Below, in pieces: positions 1,551 to 52,523 of a stretch of DNA of 64,000 nt. How positions within the stretch are numbered: the stretch's first letter is position 1; each line of letters opens with the position of its first letter. Source of the stretch: Bacteroidaceae bacterium (GTDB lineage Bacteria; Bacteroidota; Bacteroidia; Bacteroidales; Barnesiellaceae_A); contig JAGBHF010000090.1 of assembly GCA_017935645.1 (NCBI GenBank), positions 3,387 to 67,386 on the forward strand, written 5' to 3'. The translations under genes and the position numbers were made by a program. The notes beneath the pieces are model-generated. The model was not told the DNA's origin. It worked only from the letters and a program-made list of their open reading frames with translations, and ran no database searches.

Positions 1551-2801
1551 TTATTGTTTCCTATCGGTGTTAACCCACTTATACAGCTTGTCGGATGGTC
1601 GTATTTTCTTGTCAAGTTTAATAGAGAAGTGCTGACCTTTAGTAACTTTATCGACACTCTTCAGCGCCACACGAATCTCCTCAACAACCACAAACAAAGC
1701 ACCTGTTGTAGGACCGGTAACGAGTATCTCTTCACCTACCGACAATTCGCCACTTTCGAGCAAGAACTCTGCCACGCCCAAGTTAGAGAAGTATTTGACA
1801 CCCTTACCTATATACTCCTTGCGCTTGGTAGCCGACGAGCCATAGTTCTTCGACCATTCACCAAGACGTTGTCCCAAGTAGTAACCATCCCAGAATCCAC
1901 GGTTGAACACGGTAGTCAAGCGGGTATTCCACTCCTCGATGCGCTCGTCGGTAAATGTATCGTTGAGACAAGCCTCAATAGCTTCGTTGTAGCACGAAAC
2001 AACCGTGCTTACATACTCGGGGCCACGAGCACGGCCCTCAATCTTAAACACTCTCACACCCGAGTCGATGAGTTTGTTGAGGAAGTGTATGGTCTTGAGG
2101 TCCTTGGGCGACATGATATATTGGTTCTCTATGGCCAGTTCCTCGCCGGTCTCACGGTCGGTAACTTGGTATGAACGGCGACATATCTGCATGCAACCGC
2201 CACGATTGGCCGAATGATTCATTTGATGCAAGCTCAAGTAACACTTACCCGATACAGCCATGCACAATGCACCATGACAGAACATTTCGATGCGTATAGG
2301 CTTTCCGGCAGGGCCCACGATATTCTCTTCCTCGATGGCTCGATAGATATTGGCCACCTGATCCATATTCAACTCACGAGCCAATACCACAACATCGGCA
2401 AATTGTGAGTAGAAGCGCAAAGCCTCTACATTCGATATATTGAGCTGAGTAGACAAGTGCACCTCAACACCAATACTGCGTGCATAAGTCATAGCAGCCA
2501 CGTCGCTGGCAATAATAGCCGAGATACCGGCATCGCGAGCTGCATTGATAATGCTACGCATCAACTCCATATCATTGTCATAGATAATAGTGTTGACAGT
2601 AAGATAGCTTTTCAAGCCATTCTGGTCGCATATTTGAGCTATATTGTGCAGGTCGTCTATGGTAAAGTTTACCGACGAGCGTGCTCGCATGTTCAAGCCT
2701 TCGATACCAAAATATATCGAGTCGGCTCCTGCTTGTATGGCTGCTTGCAACGATTCGTAGCAACCTACAGGAGCCATAATTTCAAAATCTTCTCTCTTCA
2801 T
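1551..2801 (-). CDS. Peptidase U32 family protein (collagenase-like/PrtC-type)
   Basis: The ORF 1551..2825 translation has U32 hallmarks (EIMAPVG...AGADSIYFG...; E..CHGALC..SG.C). ATG at 2801 (MKREDFEIMAP) is preferred over the TTG at 2825 because the -7 box at 2837-2844 leaves almost no room upstream of the TTG. Confidence 0.8.
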   Translation of the reverse strand: MKREDFEIMAPVGCYESLQAAIQAGADSIYFGIEGLNMRARSSVNFTIDDLHNIAQICDQNGLKSYLTVNTIIYDNDMELMRSIINAARDAGISAIIASDVAAMTYARSIGVEVHLSTQLNISNVEALRFYSQFADVVVLARELNMDQVANIYRAIEEENIVGPAGKPIRIEMFCHGALCMAVSGKCYLSLHQMNHSANRGGCMQICRRSYQVTDRETGEELAIENQYIMSPKDLKTIHFLNKLIDSGVRVFKIEGRARGPEYVSTVVSCYNEAIEACLNDTFTDERIEEWNTRLTTVFNRGFWDGYYLGQRLGEWSKNYGSSATKRKEYIGKGVKYFSNLGVAEFLLESGELSVGEEILVTGPTTGALFVVVEEIRVALKSVDKVTKGQHFSIKLDKKIRPSDKLYKWVNTDRKQ

Positions 2802-2836
2802 ATCTCTATATATGTATTTTTGCAAATTCTATTGTG

Positions 2837-2844
2837 CAAAGATA
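2837..2844 (-). promoter_or_regulatory. Bacteroides-type -7 promoter box (TATCTTTG on minus strand) for the U32 peptidase gene
   Basis: Exact match to the TAnnTTTG consensus, 36 nt upstream of ATG 2801. Confidence 0.4.
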
Positions 2845-2864
2845 GCGATAATTTTCTATTTCTC

Positions 2865-4538
2865 TCAATACTTAAAGCTACTGCCACCAAGGAACTCGCG
2901 CAAGAGCGATGTGGGTGGAATCTCCTTCTCGGGCAGAGAGCGGAAATAGTGCAAGAACTTGAGCAATCGGGCAGCCTCGGCATACTCGGGGCAGTTGCGC
3001 GGTACTGAACGCAATACGGGTACAGCATAGTCGCGTATTACAGCCAACTCAAAGAGCAACGACGAGTTGAACATGGCATGAGCATTCTCCTGATAGGGGA
3101 AAATCCATTTGTCCTCGCCACGGCGCACACTCGGCCAGCGAGCGATGGTATCTTTGGGCGATACACCACGAGTCTTGGCATCACGCACAATGCGACGCAA
3201 CAAGCGATTGTCGGTCGAGGGTATGCAGTTGTGGTCGTCGATAGACAGCGAAGTGAGTGCCGACGCATAAATACCATACTTCTGTTCATCGGGGATAGAG
3301 GCTGTCATCTCGGGATTGAGAGCATGAATACCTTCCAATATAAGCACCGTATTGGGTGTAAGTTGCATACTCTTTGCACCCTCAACACGTGAGCCGCTCT
3401 TGAAATCGTAGGTAGGCAGAGAGACCAACTCGCCATTAAGCAGGCGTTGCAAATCGCTGTTGAAGCGTTTCAGGTCGAGAGCATACAACGACTCGTAGTC
3501 ATATTCGCCCTCTTCATCGAGGGGTGTATCTACACGGTTGACAAAATAATCGTCGAGCGAGATAGCTGCCGGAATGAGACGATTGGTCATCAACTGCACC
3601 GACAAACGCTTCGAGAATGTTGTTTTGCCCGACGAAGAGGGGCCCGAAATGAGCACAATGCGTGCGCCTCCTTGATGAAATCGATTGGCTATATCTTCGG
3701 CAATAGCAGCAATTTGCTTTTCGTGCAAGGCCTCAGCTACTTGTATCAATACCGACGCTTTATCCTCCTCAATGGCACGATTGAGACGACCTACACCACT
3801 GAGACCAATAATCTGATTGAAGGTGTTGTATTTATCGAACGCTACAAGCATCTTCGACTGGTCGATAGGCGTAGCGGGTCGCGACAGGTCGTTCTTATCG
3901 GGAGGCAGGAGCAACATGCCATTGGCATAAGGTTGCAGGTCAAACACCTTCAAGTATCCGGTCGATGGTACCAACCAACTATAATACATATCGGCCAGTC
4001 CGTCGAGTTCATAATAATCGGTATACAGGTCGCCGATTGTGTTTAAGAGGTCAATCTTCTTTGTAAGCCCCTGTTTCTCAAATATCTTTACCACATCGGT
4101 CGTATGAGCCATCTTTTGTTCAAAGGGGAGGTCTTTATCGATAATCTCTTGCATACGAGTACGTAAGGCAGCGACCTTGGTCGGCTCCACCGGTAGCTTG
4201 GCATCGCCCAACAGGCAATATTTGCCATTGGATATAGAGTGCTCGATACGCAACGATTCGCCGGGGAAAAGCTCATGAACAGCCTTATACAATACAAAGC
4301 TGAGCGAACGTTCATAGGCACGCATACCCGAAGCATCGCTAATATCGACAAACTCCACGTCGCAGGTGTTATATACACGGAAGTTGAGACTCTCCGACTT
4401 ATTATTAACACGCGCTGTAACAGCAGGATAGGGCATATTAAGGTCGATGCGATTATAGATGCTCAATAGCGACTCACCGCCTTCAACCTCGATTTTTTCA
4501 CCTGTATTGCAACAGTAAATTGTGATGTACTTATCCAT
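2865..4538 (-). CDS. Uridine-kinase/PRK-family P-loop nucleoside kinase with an N-terminal TGS/ThrRS-like domain
   Basis: Walker A GPSSSGKTTFSKRL followed by uridine-kinase-like DDYF...YD..SLYALD motifs. The N-terminal ~250 aa resembles the TGS/second-additional-domain region of ThrRS. Start chosen at MDKYITIYC (ATG 4538) rather than the upstream AT-rich extension. Confidence 0.7.
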   Translation of the reverse strand: MDKYITIYCCNTGEKIEVEGGESLLSIYNRIDLNMPYPAVTARVNNKSESLNFRVYNTCDVEFVDISDASGMRAYERSLSFVLYKAVHELFPGESLRIEHSISNGKYCLLGDAKLPVEPTKVAALRTRMQEIIDKDLPFEQKMAHTTDVVKIFEKQGLTKKIDLLNTIGDLYTDYYELDGLADMYYSWLVPSTGYLKVFDLQPYANGMLLLPPDKNDLSRPATPIDQSKMLVAFDKYNTFNQIIGLSGVGRLNRAIEEDKASVLIQVAEALHEKQIAAIAEDIANRFHQGGARIVLISGPSSSGKTTFSKRLSVQLMTNRLIPAAISLDDYFVNRVDTPLDEEGEYDYESLYALDLKRFNSDLQRLLNGELVSLPTYDFKSGSRVEGAKSMQLTPNTVLILEGIHALNPEMTASIPDEQKYGIYASALTSLSIDDHNCIPSTDNRLLRRIVRDAKTRGVSPKDTIARWPSVRRGEDKWIFPYQENAHAMFNSSLLFELAVIRDYAVPVLRSVPRNCPEYAEAARLLKFLHYFRSLPEKEIPPTSLLREFLGGSSFKY

Positions 4539-4717: not shown

Positions 4718-6481
4718 ATGAACTACTCGTTTTTCGATTTCTTGACGCTGATAGGTGCGCTGGGAATGTTCCTTTATGGAATGAAAATCATGAGCGAAGG
4801 TTTGCAAAAAGCAGCCGGAGATCGCATGCAGAAGATTCTCTCATCCATGACCAATAACCGCATCATGGGTGTGTTTACCGGTATGCTTATCACAGCTCTT
4901 ATTCAGTCATCATCGGCAACAACCGTCATGGTAGTAAGTTTTGTCAATGCCGGACTTTTATCGCTCACTCAGTCTATTGCCGTAATCATGGGTGCCAACG
5001 TAGGTACTACCGTAACGGCTTGGATTATCTCTCTCTTTGGTTTCACAGTAAAGATTGCCGATGTGGTCTTCCCCGTTATGGCTATCTCTATCCCCTTGAT
5101 ATTCTCTAAGAACAACCAACGCCGCTATTGGGGTGAGTTCCTTATCGGTTTCTCACTACTCTTCTTGGGTATGGAGTTTATGAAGGAGTCGGTTCCCAAC
5201 TTGCAAGAGAACCCCGCAGCCTTGGAGTTCCTCAACAACTACACCAATATGGGCTACGGCTCGGTATTGTTGTTCTTGCTTATCGGTTCTATCCTCACTA
5301 TCATCATGCAGTCGTCAAGTGCCACCATGGCCATTACACTTATTATGTGTAGTCAAGGATGGATATCATTTGAGATTGCCGCCGCTATGGTACTTGGTGA
5401 GAATATCGGTACAACCATCACCGCCAACATGGCAGCCCTCTCGGCCAACGTATCGGCTAAGCGCGCCGCCTTTGCACACTTCTTGTTCAACATGTTCGGT
5501 GTGTGCTGGATGCTTATATTCTTCTTCCCTTTCACACGCATGATTATTGCTCTTGTAGGACACTTGAACGGCATGTCGACCGACGAAGTAAACTACTTGT
5601 TAAACTCATCGGCAGCATTACTTCCTCCCGAAGAAGCAGCCAAAGCCGCAACCACCGTATCGTTCTCGTTGGCTCTGTTCCACTCAATATTTAACGTGTG
5701 CAACGTGCTCATCATGATATGGTTTGTGAAACTATACGAGAAGATTGTTACCTCTGTAATCAAACAAAAATCGGCTACCGACGAGGAGTTCCAACTCAAG
5801 TATATCAATACCGGTATGATGGGTGCATCGGAATTGAACCTCCCCCAAGCCCGCCAAGAGATTGTGGTATATGCCGAGCGCGTACGTCGCATGTTTGGCA
5901 TGGTACAAGACCTCTTGCACGAGAAAGAGAGTAGCGAGGCCTTCTCTAAGTTGTACAGCCGCATCGAGAAGTATGAACAAATATGCGACCGCATGGAGAT
6001 TGAGATTGCCTCATTCTTGAACAAAGTGGTAAGCGGTCGATTGAGCTACGACGGTAAGTTGCAAGTAAATTCAATGCTTACCATGGTGACTGAGATAGAA
6101 AGCATTGGTGACTGCTGTTACAACTTGGCTCGCACATTGGTGCGCAAGCAAGAGGCCGGTGTGAAGTTCAACGATGAGATCATGAGCAATATCGATGCTC
6201 TTATGGCACTTGATTCCGATGCTCTCGAAAGCCTTATCGCTGTATTGTCGAAAGGTGAGAATGCCGACATTATTGCAACATACAACAAAGAGAACGAGAT
6301 TAACAACTTCCGCAATCAGTTGCGTGCCACCAACATGGATAATATCAATGCCAAGCACTACGACTATCAAGAAAGTATATACTACATGGATATCGTGGCT
6401 GAGGCCGAGAGCTTGGGCGATTATATCGTAAATGTTGTGGATGCTGTTAAGCAACAATCTCACCACAAGTTGAAAGTATAA
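4718..6481 (+). CDS. Na+/phosphate cotransporter family protein (NptA/YjbB-like) with C-terminal PhoU-like domain
   Basis: Duplicated Na_Pi_cotrans signature (LIQSSSATTVMVVSF... and IMQSSSATMAITLIM...), polytopic membrane N-half, helical PhoU-like C-half. Confidence 0.85.
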   Translation: MNYSFFDFLTLIGALGMFLYGMKIMSEGLQKAAGDRMQKILSSMTNNRIMGVFTGMLITALIQSSSATTVMVVSFVNAGLLSLTQSIAVIMGANVGTTVTAWIISLFGFTVKIADVVFPVMAISIPLIFSKNNQRRYWGEFLIGFSLLFLGMEFMKESVPNLQENPAALEFLNNYTNMGYGSVLLFLLIGSILTIIMQSSSATMAITLIMCSQGWISFEIAAAMVLGENIGTTITANMAALSANVSAKRAAFAHFLFNMFGVCWMLIFFFPFTRMIIALVGHLNGMSTDEVNYLLNSSAALLPPEEAAKAATTVSFSLALFHSIFNVCNVLIMIWFVKLYEKIVTSVIKQKSATDEEFQLKYINTGMMGASELNLPQARQEIVVYAERVRRMFGMVQDLLHEKESSEAFSKLYSRIEKYEQICDRMEIEIASFLNKVVSGRLSYDGKLQVNSMLTMVTEIESIGDCCYNLARTLVRKQEAGVKFNDEIMSNIDALMALDSDALESLIAVLSKGENADIIATYNKENEINNFRNQLRATNMDNINAKHYDYQESIYYMDIVAEAESLGDYIVNVVDAVKQQSHHKLKV

Positions 6482-6507
6482 CTTTTACAATCGATACAAT
6501 GAACGAA

Positions 6508-6543
6508 GGATACCGGCTCGCAAAGTCGGTATCCCTTTTTTTT
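6508..6543 (+). terminator. Rho-independent terminator after the Na/Pi cotransporter gene
   Basis: GGATACCGGCT...AGTCGGTATCC stem followed by a T8 run. Confidence 0.7.
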
Positions 6544-6605
6544 ACTATCGGCATATCGAGAAATAAAATCGGCAACAGAAGTGCTATTTTTCCAAAAAAG
6601 AGTCT

Positions 6606-6613
6606 TACTTTTG
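6606..6613 (+). promoter_or_regulatory. -7 promoter box TACTTTTG
   Basis: Exact TAnnTTTG match, 27 nt upstream of ATG 6641. Confidence 0.5.
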
Positions 6614-6640
6614 CGTCACTAATAGGAAATTAAAAGAGAT

Positions 6641-7705
6641 ATGAAAAAGAAGACTATTCTTATTGTAGCATGTGTAGTGGTGGCAATTTTGCTTGTTGCA
6701 GTAGGCATCGTGGGATATGGCTTTATGAACGATGCACGCATTAAGGCTGCACGTAGTATTACCCAGATAGACGAGGGATTGTATACGATGACTTATGAGG
6801 GAGATTATGGTTTTGACACCTTCCTGCAACAAGGCGGCGCCTCGTCTGATGCAGCTATGGCACAATATATCACCAACTTTATCATGCAGGGTTTTGGTGC
6901 GCCCAATGCTCAGCCCGACACAACAGCCGAAATGGGTTGCAGTACATTTGTTGTTCACAACGAACATGGTATCTTGTTTGGGCGTAACTTCGACTTTCCA
7001 GCGGTACAAAAGGCTATGATTGTAAAGGCTCGCCCCGACAATGGCTACGCCTCAATATCAACAGCATGTCTTGATTTTATGGGAATGCCGGCCGAGTGGC
7101 AACCCGATGGCGATATACCATCGCGCATGGCTGCTATTACAGCACTATATCTACCTCTCGATGGTATCAATGAAATGGGACTGTGCGTATCGGACCTTGT
7201 TGCAGGCGACGAGGAGGAAACACACCAATCGACCGATAAGCCCGACCTTACCACCACATCGGCAGTGCGTCTGTTGCTCGATAAAGCGGCCAATGTACAT
7301 GAAGCTATCGAGTTGCTACGCAATCACGACATGAATACCTCCATAGGCACATCGCACCACTTGGCTATAGCCGACGCTACAGGAGCATCGGTTGTTGTGG
7401 AGTATATCGGTGGCGAAATGTTTGTTACACCGGTTGAGATTGTTACCAATCACTACTTAACACCCGGCGAGAAGTGTGGCATAGGAAACGAGCTGTCGCA
7501 TGAACGATATGCAACTATAGCGCACATGAGTAGCGTACTGCCTTATAAGACATCACCGCAACGAGTTATGGAAGTACTCCGCGCGGTATCGTACAGCGAA
7601 TATACCCACTGGAGCATCGTGTTTGACACCGAGGTGTGCGAGGCACAATACGTGTGGAAGTGTGGATTTGACAAGAAGAAACACATATTCGGTATATTTG
7701 AGTAA
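6641..7705 (+). CDS. Membrane-anchored Ntn-hydrolase of the peptidase C45 / isopenicillin-N acyltransferase-like family
   Basis: N-terminal TM anchor (ILIVACVVVAILLVAVGIVGY). Internal Gly99-Cys100 (AEMGCSTFVV) followed by GRNFDF, the pattern of self-processing C45 Ntn hydrolases. Confidence 0.6.
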   Translation: MKKKTILIVACVVVAILLVAVGIVGYGFMNDARIKAARSITQIDEGLYTMTYEGDYGFDTFLQQGGASSDAAMAQYITNFIMQGFGAPNAQPDTTAEMGCSTFVVHNEHGILFGRNFDFPAVQKAMIVKARPDNGYASISTACLDFMGMPAEWQPDGDIPSRMAAITALYLPLDGINEMGLCVSDLVAGDEEETHQSTDKPDLTTTSAVRLLLDKAANVHEAIELLRNHDMNTSIGTSHHLAIADATGASVVVEYIGGEMFVTPVEIVTNHYLTPGEKCGIGNELSHERYATIAHMSSVLPYKTSPQRVMEVLRAVSYSEYTHWSIVFDTEVCEAQYVWKCGFDKKKHIFGIFE

Positions 7706-18307: not shown

Positions 18308-19129
18308 TTATAGGATTGTTACGGGAGATTTTCGTTTCTTGAAGCATTGCGACAATACGGGTGCATAGGGCGTGTCGAGTGTGCGTGCCTTGGCAGGACA
18401 ACCCTTGACACACGCACAGCACTTGATGCAACGTGAGGTATCGGTATGTAGGTAATCACCGGTTGCAATAGCACCTGTAGGGCATAGTTTGACACACTTG
18501 CCACAAAGTTTACACTTATCGGCATCCACAACAACCTGTGGTTTTGCAACCGACTTCAGTCGGCGTTGCTTTTTTATAAAGTGAACAAATCGCAACATCG
18601 AGAAGAACGAGTTGCGAGGAGCCTTCAACGAGGCTACGTCTATGGCTTCGGCCGATGCGCTTTGAGCAACCTTGGCAGCAATGTTTTTTCCCCACGCGCG
18701 AGCATCGGCCAGGTCGTCAACATCGGGACGTCCCGTAGCAATGGGATATCGGGCAGTACTGTAAGAGTGTTCGCCAACAAAAGCTCCTGCAGCAATGGGA
18801 ATAAATCCACGTTGATGCACAAACTCGTTGAGCTGTGTGAGAGCCTCTTCATAAGCACGATTACCATACACCACAATAAGTACAATAGGGGTATTGCTAC
18901 CTCGCATGGCATCGAGACGTTGCAATGCAAGAGGAGCAACCTTTCCACCATACACAGGTACAGCTACGACAAGCAATTCGTCGGACTTATAGCACATACC
19001 GGAAGGGGTGCTATAGGTTGCATCAACAACACGATTTTCGAGCGAGAGGCTGTCGGCAACAGCCATTGCCACCTTGCGCGATGTGCCGGTGGGCGAAAAC
19101 AATACGGTAGTAACAGTCGTTATATTCAT
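18308..19129 (-). CDS. Flavodoxin-like / 2x[4Fe-4S] ferredoxin fusion protein (EFR1-type)
   Basis: N-terminal flavodoxin-like fold ([13 protein letters not shown]...VVAVPVYGG). C-terminal [12 protein letters not shown] and [12 protein letters not shown] cluster motifs. Confidence 0.7.
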
Positions 19130-19133
19130 AGTA

Positions 19134-19141
19134 CAAAAGTA
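19134..19141 (-). promoter_or_regulatory. -7 box TACTTTTG placed 4 nt from the ferredoxin-gene ATG (leaderless geometry)
   Basis: The minus strand reads TACTTTTG-TACT-ATG. Confidence 0.45.
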
Positions 19142-19317
19142 GTAAATAGCCCGTCGAGAACAAAAAAGTATGCTTGTTTTTTTGCATTACAGGCAAGTTC
19201 TACAACTGATGTGCAATTTGCAAACTGCACTTTGCAAACCATGCTTAGATTTAAAAATTTTAGCATCTATTCAGGAAAAAATTATTTAATAAACCGTTTT
19301 CTTGCAGAAAAAAGCAC

Positions 19318-19325
19318 TACTTTTG
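19318..19325 (+). promoter_or_regulatory. -7 promoter box TACTTTTG for pckA
   Basis: Exact TAnnTTTG match, 71 nt upstream of ATG 19397. Confidence 0.5.
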
Positions 19326-19396
19326 CAATGCTTGAAAAAAGAGCACATAACAAGGTAAGAAAGATTAGTTTAACCAACCAAAAAGATTTATTAGAA

Positions 19397-21004
19397 ATGG
19401 CAACATTAGACTTGACAAAGTACGGTATTAACGGAACAACCGAAATACTGCACAACCCCTCTTATGACCAACTCTTTGCCGAGGAGACTCTTCCTGGTCT
19501 TGAAGGCTATGAAGTAGGTCAAGTAACAGAATTGGGTGCTGTAAACGTAATGACAGGTATCTACACCGGTCGTTCGCCCAAAGATAAATTTTTCGTGTAT
19601 GATGAGGTTTCTAAAAACACTGTTTGGTGGACCTCTGAAGAATATAAGAACGATAACAAACCCGTTTCGCAAGAGACTTGGTCGGCATTGAAAGACCTCG
19701 CCATCAGCGAGTTGTCTAACAAGAAACTCTACGTTGTAGATACTTTCTGCGGTGCTAACGAAAACTCTCGTCTCAAAGTTCGCTTCATCGTTGAGGTTGC
19801 ATGGCAAGCTCACTTTGTAACCAACATGTTCATCCGCCCCACAGCCGAGGAATTGGCTAACTATGGCGAGCCCGACTTCGTTGTTTACAACGCCTCTAAA
19901 GCTAAAGTTGAGAACTGGAAAGAGTTGGGTCTTAATAGCGAGACTGCTGTTGTATTCAACCTCACCAGCAAAGAGCAAGTTATCATCAACACATGGTATG
20001 GTGGTGAGATGAAGAAGGGTATGTTCTCTATCATGAACTACCTCCTTCCCTTGCGTGGCATGGCTTCAATGCACTGCTCGGCCAATACCGACATGAACAA
20101 CGAGAACACAGCTATCTTCTTTGGCCTCTCGGGTACAGGTAAGACAACTCTCTCTACCGACCCCAAACGTCTCCTTATCGGTGACGACGAGCACGGTTGG
20201 GATGACGAGGGTGTATTCAACTTCGAGGGTGGTTGCTATGCAAAGGTTATCAACCTTTCAAAAGAGAACGAGCCCGACATCTACAACGCTATCAAACGCG
20301 ACGCTCTCCTCGAGAACGTAACTGTTGATGCCAATGGTAAAATCGACTTCAGCGACAAGTCGGTTACTGAGAACACTCGTGTATCATATCCTATCTTCCA
20401 CATCAACAACATTGTACGTCCCCAATCAAAAGGTCCCGCTGCTAAGAGTGTAATCTTCCTCTCGGCCGATGCCTTTGGTGTATTGCCTCCCGTTTCTATC
20501 TTGAACGCAGAGCAAACCAAGTACTACTTCCTCTCGGGCTTCACTGCTAAGTTGGCCGGTACAGAGCGTGGTATTACTGAGCCTACTCCCACATTCTCAG
20601 CTTGTTTCGGTGCTGCATTCTTGTCATTGCACCCCACCAAATATGCCGAGGAATTGGTTAAGAAAATGGAAAAATCGGGCGCTAAGGCATACCTCGTAAA
20701 TACAGGTTGGAATGGTACCGGTAAACGTATCTCTATCCGCGATACTCGTGGTATTATCGATGCTATCCTCGATGGCTCTATCGATAAAGCTCCCACTAAA
20801 CAAATTCCTTTCTTCTCATTCACTGTACCCACAGAGTTGCCCGGTGTTGACCCCGCAATCCTCGATCCTCGCGACACTTATGCTTGCGCTTGCGAGTGGG
20901 AAGAGAAAGCCAAAGACCTCGCAGGTCGCTTCATCAAGAACTTCAACAAGTTCACAGGTAACGAAGCCGGTAAAGCACTCGTGGCTGCAGGTCCCCAACT
21001 CTAA
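19397..21004 (+). CDS. pckA: Phosphoenolpyruvate carboxykinase (ATP)
   Basis: [11 protein letters not shown]...TGRSPKDKF..., kinase-1a [21 protein letters not shown]. 535 aa. Track ORF 18566..21004 is an artefactual 5' extension. Confidence 0.95.
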
Positions 21005-21225: not shown

Positions 21226-21298
21226 ACATTATACTATTGACTTTCTCACAATGTTTCAATAAACTTGTAAAAAAAATCAACCCTTAATGTTTTATATC

Positions 21299-23422
21299 AT
21301 GAAACGAATTTTATTTTTATTATCAGTCCTGTTGGCTCTATCGGCATACGCCGAGCATGAGTATATACCCTTTGTAGAGGACGGGAAAGTGTGGGTGGAC
21401 TATAACTATCAAGGTAAGCACAACCAACTTGGTATAAATGGAACTACTACAATAGACCAGAAGGAGTACTACAAGCTATATATAGAAAGTTTCAGTGAAT
21501 ATGGTGGCACACAAACGCCAACCGACCACTCGCAACTGCATGGATATATTCGAGAAGAGAACAAACGGGTATATAGGCGAAGTATCAATGATGAACAAGA
21601 GCACTTGATATACGACTTCGGAGCACAAGTGGGCGATACAATAGAATGGGATACCATAACATACACTTGGAGCGAAGATACTATCAAACGCTATATTGTG
21701 GTAGATAGCATCAAGACAACATTGTATTATGGTAAAGAGCGGAATGTATATTACGTAACCTGCATCGAAAGAGAATTTGATAAAAACGGTGTAGAAAACT
21801 TCGAACATGGAGGCCCAATCTATTTCTATGATGAGTGGATTGAGGGTGTAGGAACACTCCGGCAACCCAGTCTTGACGACTCATTCAGATGGGGCGCCAC
21901 CGGCATGATATACTTTGAGTACTGCTACGACTATAACACTCAAGAAATATTCCCTACAAATAAAACACCGAGAGCCGAATTTTCATATCCCGGTGAGAAG
22001 TATATCCCATGCCTACAAGAAGGTAATGCTTGGGTATTCGAAAACACCCCTCCGGGCCTATTGGTACAACGCCACATCGGCAGTACAAAGGTTATAGATG
22101 GCGTAGAATATCACGTACTTTACAAAACAATCTTCTACCCCCAATCGTGGAGCGCAGGTGAGCCTATCGAGGCCGGCTATATGCGCGAGGAAAACGGCAA
22201 GGTATACATGGGCGCCGGGGAGAAAGAAAAACTCATTATCGACTTCACCTTGCAAAAGGGCGATACCGCCTATTGGGATACCGATAAACATGTGTACATC
22301 AAGGACGTATCGTACTCCGTGATAGCCGAAAAAGAGCGCAAGGTAATGCAAGTAGAGACCCGCGGATTGGGTCCGGAAGGCGAAACAACAAACAACGAAA
22401 CTTGGATAGAAGGTATAGGCACAACACACAACATCTTTGATGCCGAGTCATACAGATGGTATGACTTTTCGGGTCTCTACACTCGGTTTAAGTATTTCTA
22501 TAACTATCCTACGCAGACTTGCTACCCCGAGAATGCCGAGCAATTCGATTTCGGCACACAATCGAAGTATGAGTATATCCCATTCCTTCAAGAGGGTAAT
22601 GCGTGGGTGCAAGAAAGTATTGAAAGTGATTATGGTCGCAATATGATAACAGACACTGTTACGATTGACGGAAAAGAATACTGTGTTTTATCATTTAGGG
22701 CATTAAATATATACGAAAGCATAATTTGGGATTCGCATTATAAAACCTACCTACGCGAAGAAGGGAAAAAAGTATACAGATACCATTATGATGAAAGTTT
22801 TGTACCGACATGGAATAATACCGAACACCTTTTCTTCGACTTTGGAGCACAAGCGGGTGATAGCATTGTAGTTGCCGATTGGGAAGAATACAAACTAACC
22901 CTTGTTATAGACAGCGTTTGCCAAAAAGTATTGGACAACAAAGAAAGAGATGTGTTCTATGTTAGCTACATGAAATTATATAAGGAAAGAGAAGAAACTT
23001 ACATAGAAAACCACGATGTATGGATTGAAGGTATAGGACCTACCCAAACAGCTACATTCGACGAAATGGTATGTAAATGGGGATTAGCATGCGGCGCTTC
23101 ATTATTCTACTGCTACCACAATTACAACACCGGGTATACATACCCCGAGGATAAAACTATGATAGACTTCAGTGCCGTACATGCCACACCGGCCGATGCA
23201 AACACACTTACTTTACATCGCAATGGCAATGCGTTGATGGCGGTATTCCCCACAGCATCGGCAGGCGATTCTATCACGCTCTACGACACAACAGGCCGAG
23301 TGGTAGCAACACAAGCCGTGCAACAAGGTGCTACAACTGCTACGATAGATATAACAGCACTCCCCGCAGGCGTATACATCGCCCGCCTCAACAGTGGAGC
23401 AACCGCCAAGGTGGTGCTGTAG
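21299..23422 (+). CDS. Secreted T9SS cargo protein made of three ~210-aa tandem repeats plus a C-terminal sorting domain
   Basis: Signal peptide MKRILFLLSVLLALSAYA. The repeats begin EYIPFVEDGKVWV / KYIPCLQEGNAWV / EYIPFLQEGNAWV, and each contains WIEG(V/I)G(T/P). The C-terminal ~70 aa (ITLYDTTGRVV...LPAGVYIARL...AKVVL) matches the T9SS type-A CTD pattern. Confidence 0.75.
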   Translation: MKRILFLLSVLLALSAYAEHEYIPFVEDGKVWVDYNYQGKHNQLGINGTTTIDQKEYYKLYIESFSEYGGTQTPTDHSQLHGYIREENKRVYRRSINDEQEHLIYDFGAQVGDTIEWDTITYTWSEDTIKRYIVVDSIKTTLYYGKERNVYYVTCIEREFDKNGVENFEHGGPIYFYDEWIEGVGTLRQPSLDDSFRWGATGMIYFEYCYDYNTQEIFPTNKTPRAEFSYPGEKYIPCLQEGNAWVFENTPPGLLVQRHIGSTKVIDGVEYHVLYKTIFYPQSWSAGEPIEAGYMREENGKVYMGAGEKEKLIIDFTLQKGDTAYWDTDKHVYIKDVSYSVIAEKERKVMQVETRGLGPEGETTNNETWIEGIGTTHNIFDAESYRWYDFSGLYTRFKYFYNYPTQTCYPENAEQFDFGTQSKYEYIPFLQEGNAWVQESIESDYGRNMITDTVTIDGKEYCVLSFRALNIYESIIWDSHYKTYLREEGKKVYRYHYDESFVPTWNNTEHLFFDFGAQAGDSIVVADWEEYKLTLVIDSVCQKVLDNKERDVFYVSYMKLYKEREETYIENHDVWIEGIGPTQTATFDEMVCKWGLACGASLFYCYHNYNTGYTYPEDKTMIDFSAVHATPADANTLTLHRNGNALMAVFPTASAGDSITLYDTTGRVVATQAVQQGATTATIDITALPAGVYIARLNSGATAKVVL

Positions 23423-23449
23423 TGAAGAAAATACCTTTAAACACAAACA

Positions 23450-23484
23450 TTGCCCCACAGAATATTTCCGTGGGGCAATTTTCA
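23450..23484 (+). terminator. Rho-independent terminator after the T9SS cargo gene
   Basis: TTGCCCCAC / GTGGGGCAA stem followed by TTTTC. Confidence 0.6.
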
Positions 23485-23496
23485 TATCTCGCAAGG

Positions 23497-23566
23497 TAAT
23501 CTTTTCTCCCCATGTGTTTTCCGCACGGAAAATATAGGGGGAGTGGCTGCAAGCCGAGGGGGTTGG
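23497..23566 (+). repeat. Intergenic structured repeat unit A, copy 1 (70 bp)
   Basis: TAATCTTTTCTCCCCATGTGTTTTCCGCACGGAAAATATAGGGGGAGTGGCTGCAAGCCGAGGGGGTTGG. It contains nested stems CTCCCC/GGGGAG, TTTTCCG/CGGAAAA and GGCT/AGCC. Confidence 0.8.
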
Positions 23567-23720
23567 TGGATGTCACCGAACATAGGGATGTCAATAAACC
23601 CCTCAGTCACTTGCGTGACAGCTCCCCTATCTCTACGAGCAGAGGAGCAAAAATATACCACCCGACACACAAAGAAACATGTCCTTATGTTCTTATGTCT
23701 TAATAACAATACACACATGG

Positions 23721-23790
23721 TAACCTTTTCTCCCTCTGTGTTTTCCGCACGGAAAATATAGGGGGAGTGGCTGCAAGCCGAGGGGGTTGG
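23721..23790 (+). repeat. Intergenic structured repeat unit A, copy 2 (70 bp, about 4 mismatches to copy 1)
   Basis: TAACCTTTTCTCCCTCTGTGTTTTCCGCACGGAAAATATAGGGGGAGTGGCTGCAAGCCGAGGGGGTTGG. It is flanked by the inverted repeat TTCTTATGTCTTAA (23690-23703) / TTAAGACATAAGGA (23810-23823). Confidence 0.8.
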
Positions 23791-23820
23791 AAGAAGACAG
23801 AATATTTTTTTAAGACATAA

Positions 23821-23869
23821 GGACAGAAGAGACATATAAAAGCGTGCGAAGCACGGGTCGTAGCTCCGT
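23821..23869 (+). repeat. Intergenic repeat unit B, copy 1
   Basis: GGACAGAAGAGACATATAAAAGCGTGCGAAGCACGGGTCGTAGCTCCG followed by a GCTCC-GTAA-GGAGC hairpin. Confidence 0.7.
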
Positions 23870-23978
23870 AAGGAGCGAGAATGAATAACCCCGTACGAGC
23901 CTACGAGCGTAGCGAGTGGCGAAGTGCGGGGTATCGTCACCATCCCCGTGCAATCGTCTGAAAGACGGGAGTTTTTAT

Positions 23979-24028
23979 GGACAGAAGAGACATATAAAAA
24001 ACATGCGGAGCACAAGTCGTAGCTCCGC
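23979..24028 (+). repeat. Intergenic repeat unit B, copy 2
   Basis: GGACAGAAGAGACATATAAAAAACATGCGGAGCACAAGTCGTAGCTCCGCAT. The first 21 nt are identical to copy 1. It contains the 9-bp hairpin ATGCGGAGC/GCTCCGCAT. Confidence 0.7.
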
Positions 24029-24056
24029 ATGCAATAAAATCCCTCTATATAATCGG

Positions 24057-24833
24057 TTATCCTGCGACGTTGATATCAATACCAAGGGCTTTGACACGCT
24101 CGCCTATGGCACGCAATTCCTCAACGGGAACTTTCTCAAGCGACTGTTCGGGTGTCTTGCGGTCAATAGAGTATATCTGCACTTGACGAGGACGAATGCG
24201 CTCGATAGCACGCAACCAGTCGGCAATCTCCTCTTCGGTAGTGTTGTCTACTCGCTCGCCGTCATGCTCGCCACGGGTAAACATGGTTTGTACAATGCAT
24301 TTACCTTCGAAACGCTCTATCGCACGCACTACACGCTCGGGGTCGCAATGTCCGGCAGGGACATTCATCAGGCGCATGGTGCGAGCATGCATAGTGTCGA
24401 GTTTAAGGCAGTTGTTGTCTATCTTACACAGCGCACGAAATACGCTATCGTCTTCGAGGCGGGTAGAGTTGGTAAGTACTGTAATCTGAGCCGAAGGATA
24501 CAACTCATCACGCAAAGCTATGGTGTCATTGATAATACCCTCAAACTCGGGATGCAACGTAGGCTCGCCATTACCGGCAAAGGTAATTACATCGAGCGGA
24601 CTATCTTCGCTGCGCATCTGTGTGAGCTTGTTACGCAAAGCTGTGCGCACCTCGTCGCGAGTGTGTATCTTGCGGTCGTCACGATTATCGGCGTTGTAGC
24701 CACACTCGCAATAAATACAATCGTAGGAACACCATTTGCCATTGAGAGGCAGAAGGTTGACACCCAACGATACGCCCAAACGACGACTGCGAATGGGACC
24801 AAATATTATCTCGTGAAAAAGAACGGTAGACAT
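24057..24833 (-). CDS. Radical SAM protein (function unknown)
   Basis: CxxxCxxC cluster motif CSYDCIYC near the N-terminus, GNGEPTL SAM-binding-like motif. 258 aa. Confidence 0.75.
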   Translation of the reverse strand: MSTVLFHEIIFGPIRSRRLGVSLGVNLLPLNGKWCSYDCIYCECGYNADNRDDRKIHTRDEVRTALRNKLTQMRSEDSPLDVITFAGNGEPTLHPEFEGIINDTIALRDELYPSAQITVLTNSTRLEDDSVFRALCKIDNNCLKLDTMHARTMRLMNVPAGHCDPERVVRAIERFEGKCIVQTMFTRGEHDGERVDNTTEEEIADWLRAIERIRPRQVQIYSIDRKTPEQSLEKVPVEELRAIGERVKALGIDINVAG

Positions 24834-50303: not shown

Positions 50304-50377
50304 CTCTTCAGGTTGGACTTGAACCAACGACCCTCTGATTAACAGTCAGATGCTCTAACCGACTGAGCTACTGAAGA
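50304..50377 (-). tRNA. tRNA-Asn (anticodon GTT), copy 1
   Basis: The reverse complement folds as a cloverleaf: acceptor TCTTCAG/CTGAAGA, D-arm GCTC-AGTCGGTTA-GAGC, anticodon arm TCTGA-CTGTTAA-TCAGA, T-arm GTTGG-TTCAAGT-CCAAC, discriminator G. CCA is not encoded. Confidence 0.9.
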
Positions 50378-50400: not shown

Positions 50401-50474
50401 CTCTTCAGGTTGGACTTGAACCAACGACCCTCTGATTAACAGTCAGATGCTCTAACCGACTGAGCTACTGAAGA
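50401..50474 (-). tRNA. tRNA-Asn (anticodon GTT), copy 2, identical to copy 1
   Basis: The same 74-nt sequence, 97 bp upstream of copy 1. Confidence 0.9.
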
Positions 50475-52439: not shown

Positions 52440-52523
52440 GCCCAGATGGCGGAATTGGTAGACGCGCTGGTCTCAAACACCAGTGGATTCACTTCCATGC
52501 CGGTTCGATCCCGGCTCTGGGTA
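52440..52523 (+). tRNA. tRNA-Leu (anticodon CAA), class II with a long variable arm
   Basis: Acceptor GCCCAGA/TCTGGGT, anticodon arm CTGGT-CTCAAAC-ACCAG, long variable arm, T-arm CCGG-TTCGATC-CCGG, discriminator A. Confidence 0.9.

Follow-up and report, generated by a model that had tools for sequence, protein, structure and literature searches.

The intergenic hairpin repeats reported here have their closest described counterparts in the REP, BIME and REPIN elements of Proteobacteria, which are associated with RAYT enzymes (TnpA-REP proteins of the HUH Y1 type). Like our repeats, these are extragenic, multi-copy, imperfect palindromes that form mosaic arrays, often after genes; in both cases one strand carries the structure, several subfamilies share a genome, and the arrays act as rearrangement hot spots. 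Modular intergenic repeats without a transposase of their own are also represented by BOX in Streptococcus pneumoniae, ERIC/IRU in enterobacteria and Correia/NEMIS in Neisseria. Moreover, the PATE-type non-autonomous derivatives of IS200/IS605 insertion sequences (IS) have hairpin-rich ends, with neither classical terminal inverted repeats nor a target-site duplication. Within the Bacteroidales, the BrickBuilt repeats of Porphyromonas gingivalis combine the traits of a MITE (miniature inverted-repeat transposable element) and of a minisatellite, and promoter activity has been reported for them (PMC4596501). In this study, we analyzed a 64,000-nucleotide stretch of contig JAGBHF010000090.1 from an uncultured "Bacteroidaceae bacterium" (the window, hereafter) and, within it, the spacer of about 630 bp at 23423-24056. 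This spacer lies between two genes that are convergent, as already noted in an original prediction made from the sequence: one encodes a protein with a type IX secretion system (T9SS) C-terminal sorting domain (21287-23422, plus strand), here called the T9SS-tail protein, and the other a radical SAM protein (24057-24833, minus strand). Loci retrieved from other assemblies are designated by L numbers.

We consider it likely that a family of non-coding hairpin repeats, present in multiple copies and lineage-restricted, has one of its loci in this spacer and its hosts among uncultured, Prevotella-like "Bacteroidaceae" of the ruminant gut. The family appears to be undescribed and to represent a new example of a familiar class, the REP/BIME/MITE-like intergenic repeats. 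Three module types, namely unit A (~126-150 nt), M (a T run plus an 8-mer) and B (a palindrome of ~330 nt), cluster and nest in intergenic DNA, usually just after a terminator, and the family is dispersed, structurally dynamic and hairpin-constrained. The original prediction had offered two readings, a family of non-autonomous elements (mobile or REP-like) and one or more structured non-coding RNAs. Its repeat-family interpretation is supported by the copy number of the repeats, the polymorphism of the locus and the covariation of the hairpins.

A full copy of unit A, of a subtype that we call alpha, occupies 23496-23648 on the plus strand, as delimited by RNA and DNA folds and by a covariance model match over 23496-23623 (126.8 bits). 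It comprises H1 (23506-23543), a 17-bp stem with two G.U pairs; H2 (23545-23555), which reads GGCT-GCA-AGCC; H3 (23556-23604), with GAGGGG...CCCCTC around a variable loop; H5 (23606-23619), GTCAC-TTGC-GTGAC; and H6 (23621-23648). H1 and H2, the nested stems predicted earlier, were both present in the folds. The whole unit is a large imperfect palindrome, its right half repeating the left half imperfectly and in inverted orientation, and the reverse complement of H3'-H5-H6 matches the H1-H2-H3 part of the model with 35-52 bits (antisense matches to the full-length model). A second copy, consisting of the left half only, lies at 23720-23790 on the plus strand (80.3 bits), with H1 at 23730-23767 and H2 at 23769-23779 followed by GAGGGGGTTGG, and it breaks off precisely where the H3 loop would begin. 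The duplication, first described as 70 bp long, extends over 84 nt (23492-23575 and 23716-23799) with 90% identity and an identical core of 53 nt. It is beyond chance, with 0 matches in dinucleotide-preserving shuffles, and the same holds for a second predicted repeat, unit B.

The two copies of unit A are separated by an A-rich linker (23649-23719, plus strand) with three tandem 8-mers (ATGTYCTT / TTATGTCY, 23679-23702; period 8 and 3.1 copies in Tandem Repeats Finder) and then TAATAACAATACAC. The same linker is present in L001, L011, L014, L015, L039 and L040. After the half unit come an M module (23791-23841, minus strand), made of an 8-mer run of the GACAGAAG / GACATAAG type, as read on the plus strand, plus an A/T run; the left arm alone of a B block (23842-23975, plus strand); and a second, short M-like module (23976-23999, minus strand; TATGGACAGAAGAGACATATAAAA). 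Hairpins of the B arm are found at 23843-23855 (CGTGCGAAGCACG), at 23863-23876 (GCTCC-GTAA-GGAGC, with GTAG ahead of the stem), at 23889-23931, where the long hairpin foreseen earlier is present in the fold, and at 23954-23968, which is followed by TTTTT and is terminator-like on the plus strand. Unit B does occur twice (23818-23868 and 23976-24027; 52 nt, 86.5% identical) and is a composite: its head is formed by the M module in the first copy and by the short M-like module in the second, and its remainder by the start of the B arm or by the radical SAM terminator, respectively. Compared with shuffled sequence, the fold of the spacer has z-scores of -9.4 on the plus strand and -9.1 on the minus strand.

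The inverted repeat claimed around the second copy of unit A is real (23684-23706 versus 23807-23829, 23 nt, 87% complementary), with its left arm in the linker and its right arm in the M module. The accompanying idea of a MITE-like element bracketed by these arms is weak, because there is no target-site duplication, no partner transposase is found, and the second copy resembles an interrupted unit. In this sense, L039 is informative: in its unit A, the H3 loop is occupied by two M modules, after which AACCCCTC-H5-H6 continue the unit. Since L039 shows M modules inside the H3 loop, we read the second copy in the window as probably a unit interrupted in its H3 loop by nested modules rather than as a bracketed MITE.

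Unit A is not unique to this locus. An exact-pattern scan for the H1 core, using one genome per species, returned six loci, five in a sheep-rectum metagenome-assembled genome (MAG) and one in a MAG labelled Barnesiella; half of the six lie at contig ends. Within another ruminant MAG, the modules recur at least 6 times. With a covariance model built from eight units we located 24 sense copies in 13 sequences, and a 182-aa open reading frame (ORF) of the spacer, used as a protein query, matched 21 further metagenome ORF clusters, most of them on contigs of ~1 kb; these counts mean at least 24 copies, at least 21 cluster matches and about 20 further contigs. Every copy of unit A found is intergenic. 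At other loci, the real period is ~224-290 nt and comprises H1, H2, H3 with a variable loop, H5, a 76-nt module that is present or absent, H6, and a linker that is A-rich and carries TTATGTCY 8-mers. In L037 (positions 1905-4393 of a 109-kb contig, ENA ERZ27318246 k141_165729), a gene-free stretch of 2.5 kb between divergent genes, encoding DUF456 and a 1170-aa protein, is built entirely of the same modules. It holds five copies of unit A, three palindromic B blocks of ~330 nt and M modules in tandem with a period of ~50 nt, the tandem periods being 50, 171 and 275 nt. A non-coding stretch of this length is unusual for a bacterial genome. L039 presents a T9SS-like gene, a terminator and then a unit almost identical to the first unit of the window. 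L040, an ENA contig of 1.5 kb, has unit A in both orientations with GTAG REPs between; the contig is nearly one large palindrome and may represent a genuine inverted array or a chimera of the assembly.

Neither BLAST (word size 7) nor the covariance model revealed further copies in the 64 kb of the window. Searching JGI metagenome contigs by exact pattern for the unit A core and for the linker gave 0 matches, as did scanning viral contigs, and the plasmid collection gave no match. A single 34-nt match (CCCCTCAGTCRCTTGCGYGACAGCTCCCCTA) was obtained in the phage collection, between 23596-23629 of the window and positions 601-634 of L036 (94% identity, blastn E 1e-4). L036 is MT835937.1, a "Bacteriophage sp." from human faeces; this GC-rich contig has other GGGGAG/CTCCCC hairpins and is presumably Firmicutes-like, by our impression of its base composition and coding sequence. 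In the window the match falls in the H5 region of unit A, in L036 in a spacer, and both differences are compensatory within the stem. Such a short similarity may reflect convergence or a much wider motif.

Covariation supports the hairpins of unit A. In a model-fitted alignment of the 24 copies, standard pairs make up 94.8% of cells, both sides have changed at 11 of the 32 pairs, and the covariation score is 0.213, against 0.095 in column shuffles (0 of 500 reach 0.213) and at most 0.065 in slid-partner controls, figures that are inflated because the alignment was fitted to the model and several copies are closely related. Changes on both sides are seen at every pair of H2 and H5, and H1 shows CG->AU and CG->UA changes beside its loop. 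Compensatory changes maintain H1, H2, H3 and H5. The wholesale swaps of stems may reflect a few subfamilies rather than many independent events. The two strands are not equivalent. G.U pairs fill 93 cells at 15 pair positions and A.C pairs only 3 cells at 3 pair positions, an excess that identifies the plus strand as the structured one. When folded with RNA parameters, the plus strand is more stable than the minus strand by 7-22 kcal/mol in eight of nine units, whereas DNA parameters make the strands nearly equal (-32.1 versus -29.6 kcal/mol, z about -4.4 for both).

The locus is also structurally polymorphic between strains. By comparing contigs with a radical SAM protein identical to that of the window, or with an identical or closely related T9SS-tail gene, we found at least four structural alleles among closely related strains. 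The allele of the window consists of terminator T1, an alpha unit, the linker and a half unit, with one B arm. In L001 and L002, the same place is taken by a first unit of the beta subtype, with an extra 49 nt; this subtype has CCAC/GTGG in H2 (GGCT/AGCC in alpha), GGGC/GCCC in H5 (GTCAC/GTGAC in alpha) and a different H3 loop. L041 and L042 carry a single half unit and are 224 bp shorter. The complete B block, in which the left arm is joined by an inverted right arm (~330 nt), is present in L005, L041 and L042, as well as three times in L037; the window and L001 have one arm. Altogether, the alleles differ by the presence or absence of the 224-bp unit, by an alpha/beta swap, and by the presence or absence of an M module and of one arm of the B palindrome. 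Both subtypes recur in another MAG (L015, L014). In addition, 10 contigs of the same species end inside the spacer, from either side. The internal 84-nt repeat accounts for some of these breaks but not for the ones that fall in the linker or within the long hairpin.

Sister lineages, in which the radical SAM protein is 76-90% identical, have a spacer of 28-100 bp with no similarity to the array and with a simple hairpin where the length allows it. In the species at 83-90% identity in this flanking gene, the spacer is 78-100 bp long and unrelated. The gene at the 3' end of radical SAM differs across L016-L032 and the window, being that of a T9SS protein together with phosphoenolpyruvate (PEP) carboxykinase, RsgA, a C10 peptidase, a 609-aa protein or SLT; four neighbourhoods of sister lineages were examined at the DNA level, and each was different. 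Because the array is absent and the neighbouring gene is different in these lineages, the array marks a synteny breakpoint. The C10 peptidase gene found beside radical SAM in L023 adjoins a unit A array in L011. The repeats thus coincide with recurrent rearrangement points.

The view that the spacer has no credible ORF was borne out. Its 182-aa minus-strand ORF (23482-24030) has no Pfam match, and its only database relatives are translations of other copies of the repeat; we rejected a coding reading of this ORF and of a 103-aa ORF. All three frames of unit A are open, and each is followed by some of the called ORFs (PTPSACSHSPYIF, QPPRLAATPPIF and NPLGLQPLPLYF); since its relatives are called in three different frames of one and the same DNA, the 182-aa ORF is not a gene. 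At least 21 clusters of "hypothetical proteins" in public databases are translations of this repeat family in three frames (for example, a 170-aa gene in L003), and these deposited proteins are annotation artefacts.

Comparison with known families gave no match. Rfam 15 at gathering thresholds recovered three tRNAs in the whole window and nothing in the spacer, and at E <= 10 the spacer returned only chance microRNA-type matches of 15-19 bits, versus thresholds of 47-98. Full-text literature searches for such an element in Prevotella or Bacteroidales brought up general precedents and no description of it. From the sequence, we also rejected a CRISPR array (the repeats are 84 and 52 nt long, their spacings are 224 and 158 nt, and the intervening sequence is itself conserved elsewhere), an attC site (the order of the AAC and GTT motifs is wrong), a diversity-generating retroelement (mismatches between copies are not A-specific) and an invertible promoter.

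We class unit A as working like REP and MITE elements without being a member of either family, because it lacks a GT[AG]G foot and is much larger than a REP, and because, in contrast to a MITE, it has inconsistent terminal repeats and shows no target-site duplication. The family shares with REP/BIME elements the many dispersed extragenic copies in mosaic clusters. However, the REP/BIME hairpin has 20-40 nt and a GT[AG]G foot, whereas unit A has 126-150 nt, five helices and no foot; its orientation is mostly direct rather than alternating, and no RAYT gene was found in the sequences examined. A scan of the window for GT[AG]G feet gave one weak case, GTAG at 23860 followed by a 5-bp stem. Canonical GTAG-footed REPs were detected by the scan in L013 and L020 and by direct reading in L039 and L040, and such palindromes adjoin unit A arrays in L013, L039 and L040. 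In L020, from a sister species with a radical SAM protein 85% identical, another hairpin cluster lies between convergent genes (6186-6802). It contains four canonical GTAG-footed palindromes of 9 bp (GTAG-GAGACACGA / GAGACGCAA), which occur in either orientation, and RTAAGT 8-mers in runs; its layout is analogous to that of the window array and its sequence is not homologous.

BrickBuilt, compared by architecture only, also belongs to the Bacteroidales and is strictly intergenic, multi-copy, length-variable and of limited host range, with short tandem repeats and flanking subunits that have small inverted repeats. Its core is a 23-nt tandem repeat, whereas the family in the window has an 8-mer within a ~50-nt module and is dominated by long nested hairpins. 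BOX, ERIC and Correia share with it a modular build (in the boxA-boxB(n)-boxC style), a variable number of modules, stable folds, a location near gene ends and a possible effect on transcripts, but they have no sequence relationship to it, use another module set without a large palindromic B block and belong to other host phyla. PATE elements are likewise hairpin-rich, without target-site duplication, and fold in a strand-specific (top-strand) manner with G.T mispairs; unlike them, our repeats have no identified left- or right-end cleavage motifs, have no TnpA/TnpB nearby and display an atypical tandem and nested organisation.

How could such a family spread? The modules would be non-autonomous and would multiply and reshuffle through single-stranded hairpin intermediates, presumably with an HUH/Y1 enzyme (RAYT or IS200-like) acting in trans on the folded top strand. 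This HUH/RAYT step, taken by itself, is a tentative proposal that we hold to be possible but rather doubtful. Further reshuffling would come from homologous recombination, gene conversion and slippage between copies and from the loss of palindrome arms. Once established, the modules probably play a passive part, as additional stem-loops at 3' ends by which transcription is insulated or terminated, and as substrates of recombination that give rise to synteny breakpoints. RAYT subclasses 2.4 and 2.6 have been reported from Bacteroidetes, subclass 2.6 having "atypical secondary structures" on its flanks, of which copies occur elsewhere in the genome (PMC6006769). Several observations weigh against a mobile repeat family. 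A regular-expression search for the HUH/Y1 (RAYT, IS200) motif in six frames of the window and of all fetched loci found none, and Pfam assigned the 10 neighbour genes at five other loci (within L010-L015) to ordinary housekeeping functions, with no transposase or integrase. No direct repeat adjoins the arms of the inverted repeat as a target-site duplication, either in the window (23676-23683 versus 23830-23840) or in L011, and the scan for a GT[AG]G foot plus hairpin left the helices of unit A without a foot. No clean pair of filled and empty sites with defined ends was found, so that transposition itself is only putative, and every polymorphism seen could come from recombination between existing copies. 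Moreover, the 64-kb window has one cluster only, some short metagenome contigs may be chimeric (L040), and the pair statistics are inflated, as explained above.

Unit A might instead work as RNA, either as a 3'-UTR module acting in cis after terminator read-through (through exonuclease block, insulation or termination) or as a small or guide-like RNA encoded on repeated DNA. The preponderance of G.U over A.C pairs is an asymmetry of the RNA type, the RNA folds favor the same strand, and compensatory changes maintain H1, H2, H3 and H5. The first unit is co-oriented with the upstream gene at all tandem or convergent loci where that gene is known (the window, L011, L013, L014, L015 and L039), and it starts directly after a terminator-like hairpin in all of them except L013, which has no obvious terminator; the terminator-like hairpin with T5 (23954-23976) also closes the B arm on the plus strand. 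Nevertheless, the co-orientation with transcription comes from about four informative loci and is suggestive at best, and G.T mispairs are also tolerated in the single-stranded DNA (ssDNA) hairpins of HUH enzymes. Neither Rfam, even at E <= 10, nor a sequence reading for a conserved Bacteroidetes-type promoter (TAnnTTTG) in or before the unit gave support, the lone minus-strand match not being conserved in L001, L015 or L039. In L037 the array is flanked by divergent genes and no transcription is known to enter it, copies in L040 run in both orientations, and unit A is often truncated or interrupted. On this balance, we find a role as RNA unlikely. It is also improbable that unit A is a strand-specific functional RNA or ssDNA recognition module that spreads as mobile DNA, for which a transposable 3'-end insulator or stabiliser cassette, or a scaffold or guide RNA for an HUH, TnpB or recombinase partner, is a possibility; if this were true, the five-helix fold would be under selection for function and not merely tolerated. 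Roles as DNA repeat and at the RNA level are not mutually exclusive.

Two further explanations invoke DNA alone. A classical MITE would place the element at 23684-23829 (inverted repeat, half unit A, inverted repeat) and would make it an IS deletion derivative, mobilized by a DDE transposase that recognises the 8-mer-rich ends. Its size range fits, as does the 23-nt bracket of 87% complementarity; comparable inverted 8-mer clusters surround the last unit in L001, L011 and L015, and BrickBuilt provides a Bacteroidales precedent with internal mini-repeats (PMC4596501). Such a MITE is nonetheless very improbable: the direct repeats are missing beside the arms in both the window and L011, the first unit of each array, including copy 1 of the window, has no left arm, the 8-mer clusters of L014 all have the same orientation, those of L039 sit inside the unit, and the 8-mer modules behave as a tandem mini-satellite with a period of ~50. 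In addition, the fetched loci and the viral, phage and plasmid collections yielded neither a transposase nor any longer element sharing these ends. Alternatively, the array could be a passive by-product of a recombination-prone breakpoint, made of terminator hairpins and their duplicates and copied only by homologous recombination or gene conversion. The array does stand exactly at a synteny break between sister lineages, several of its modules are terminator-like, and unequal crossing-over between the 84-nt repeats, gene conversion and loss of a palindrome arm can explain the allele differences. We give this little credence, however, as near-identical subtypes occur at unrelated loci, in different genomes and beside unrelated genes, the modules are nested inside one another, and the stems are kept by compensatory change with a bias to one strand. 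This last combination argues for selection on, or a mechanism through, a folded single strand.

Not all of the structure in the spacer belongs to the repeats: the hairpin at either edge is the intrinsic terminator of the gene that it adjoins. That of the T9SS-tail gene (23449-23483, plus strand) is a 14-bp hairpin, ATTGCCCC...GGGGCAAT (23449-23479), followed by TTTT, and lies outside the repeat family. That of the radical SAM gene (23996-24031, minus strand) has a 10-bp stem (24002-24011 with 24022-24031), a 10-nt loop and T6 at 23996-24001, and is kept in all same-species contigs, L001-L009. These two are the only hairpins that combine a G+C-rich stem and a T run after a stop codon, and intrinsic terminators do not account for units A, M and B. 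Both flanking proteins are identical to entries MBP3350622-24 of an uncultured MAG labelled "Bacteroidaceae bacterium"; the relatives of the window contig come from metagenome assemblies, and another carrier of the repeats is the sheep-rectum MAG. The window has a G+C content of 45.7%, and its GC skew is too flat for inferring the direction of replication. Upstream of the T9SS-tail gene, the mechanical ORF of the PEP carboxykinase gene (18566-21004, plus strand) starts at a TTG and has 812 aa; on related contigs the gene call has 535 aa, and the upstream extension is probably not translated. The three tRNA genes of the window (50304-50377 and 50401-50474, minus strand; 52440-52523, plus strand) are unrelated to the repeats, and the first two form a tandem pair, 97 nt apart, with identical scores.

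The repeat family described here belongs to a known class and leaves the general picture unchanged. Tens of thousands of MITE-type repeats are already on record for Bacteroidota in large censuses (PMC11602168), and for this reason a new family is expected rather than surprising. At the level of these abundant ruminant gut bacteria, the repeats explain why assemblies break at such spacers, why "hypothetical proteins" are called within them and why sister lineages differ in gene order at these points. The structural alleles are potential markers of strains. For the study of mobile DNA, the interest lies in a unit of ~126 nt that combines a one-strand G.U bias with compensatory change, and in arrays of non-coding DNA that reach 2.5 kb within a compact genome. 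This bias and these arrays raise the question of whether an HUH/RAYT-type enzyme of Bacteroidota or a function at the RNA level stands behind the repeats.

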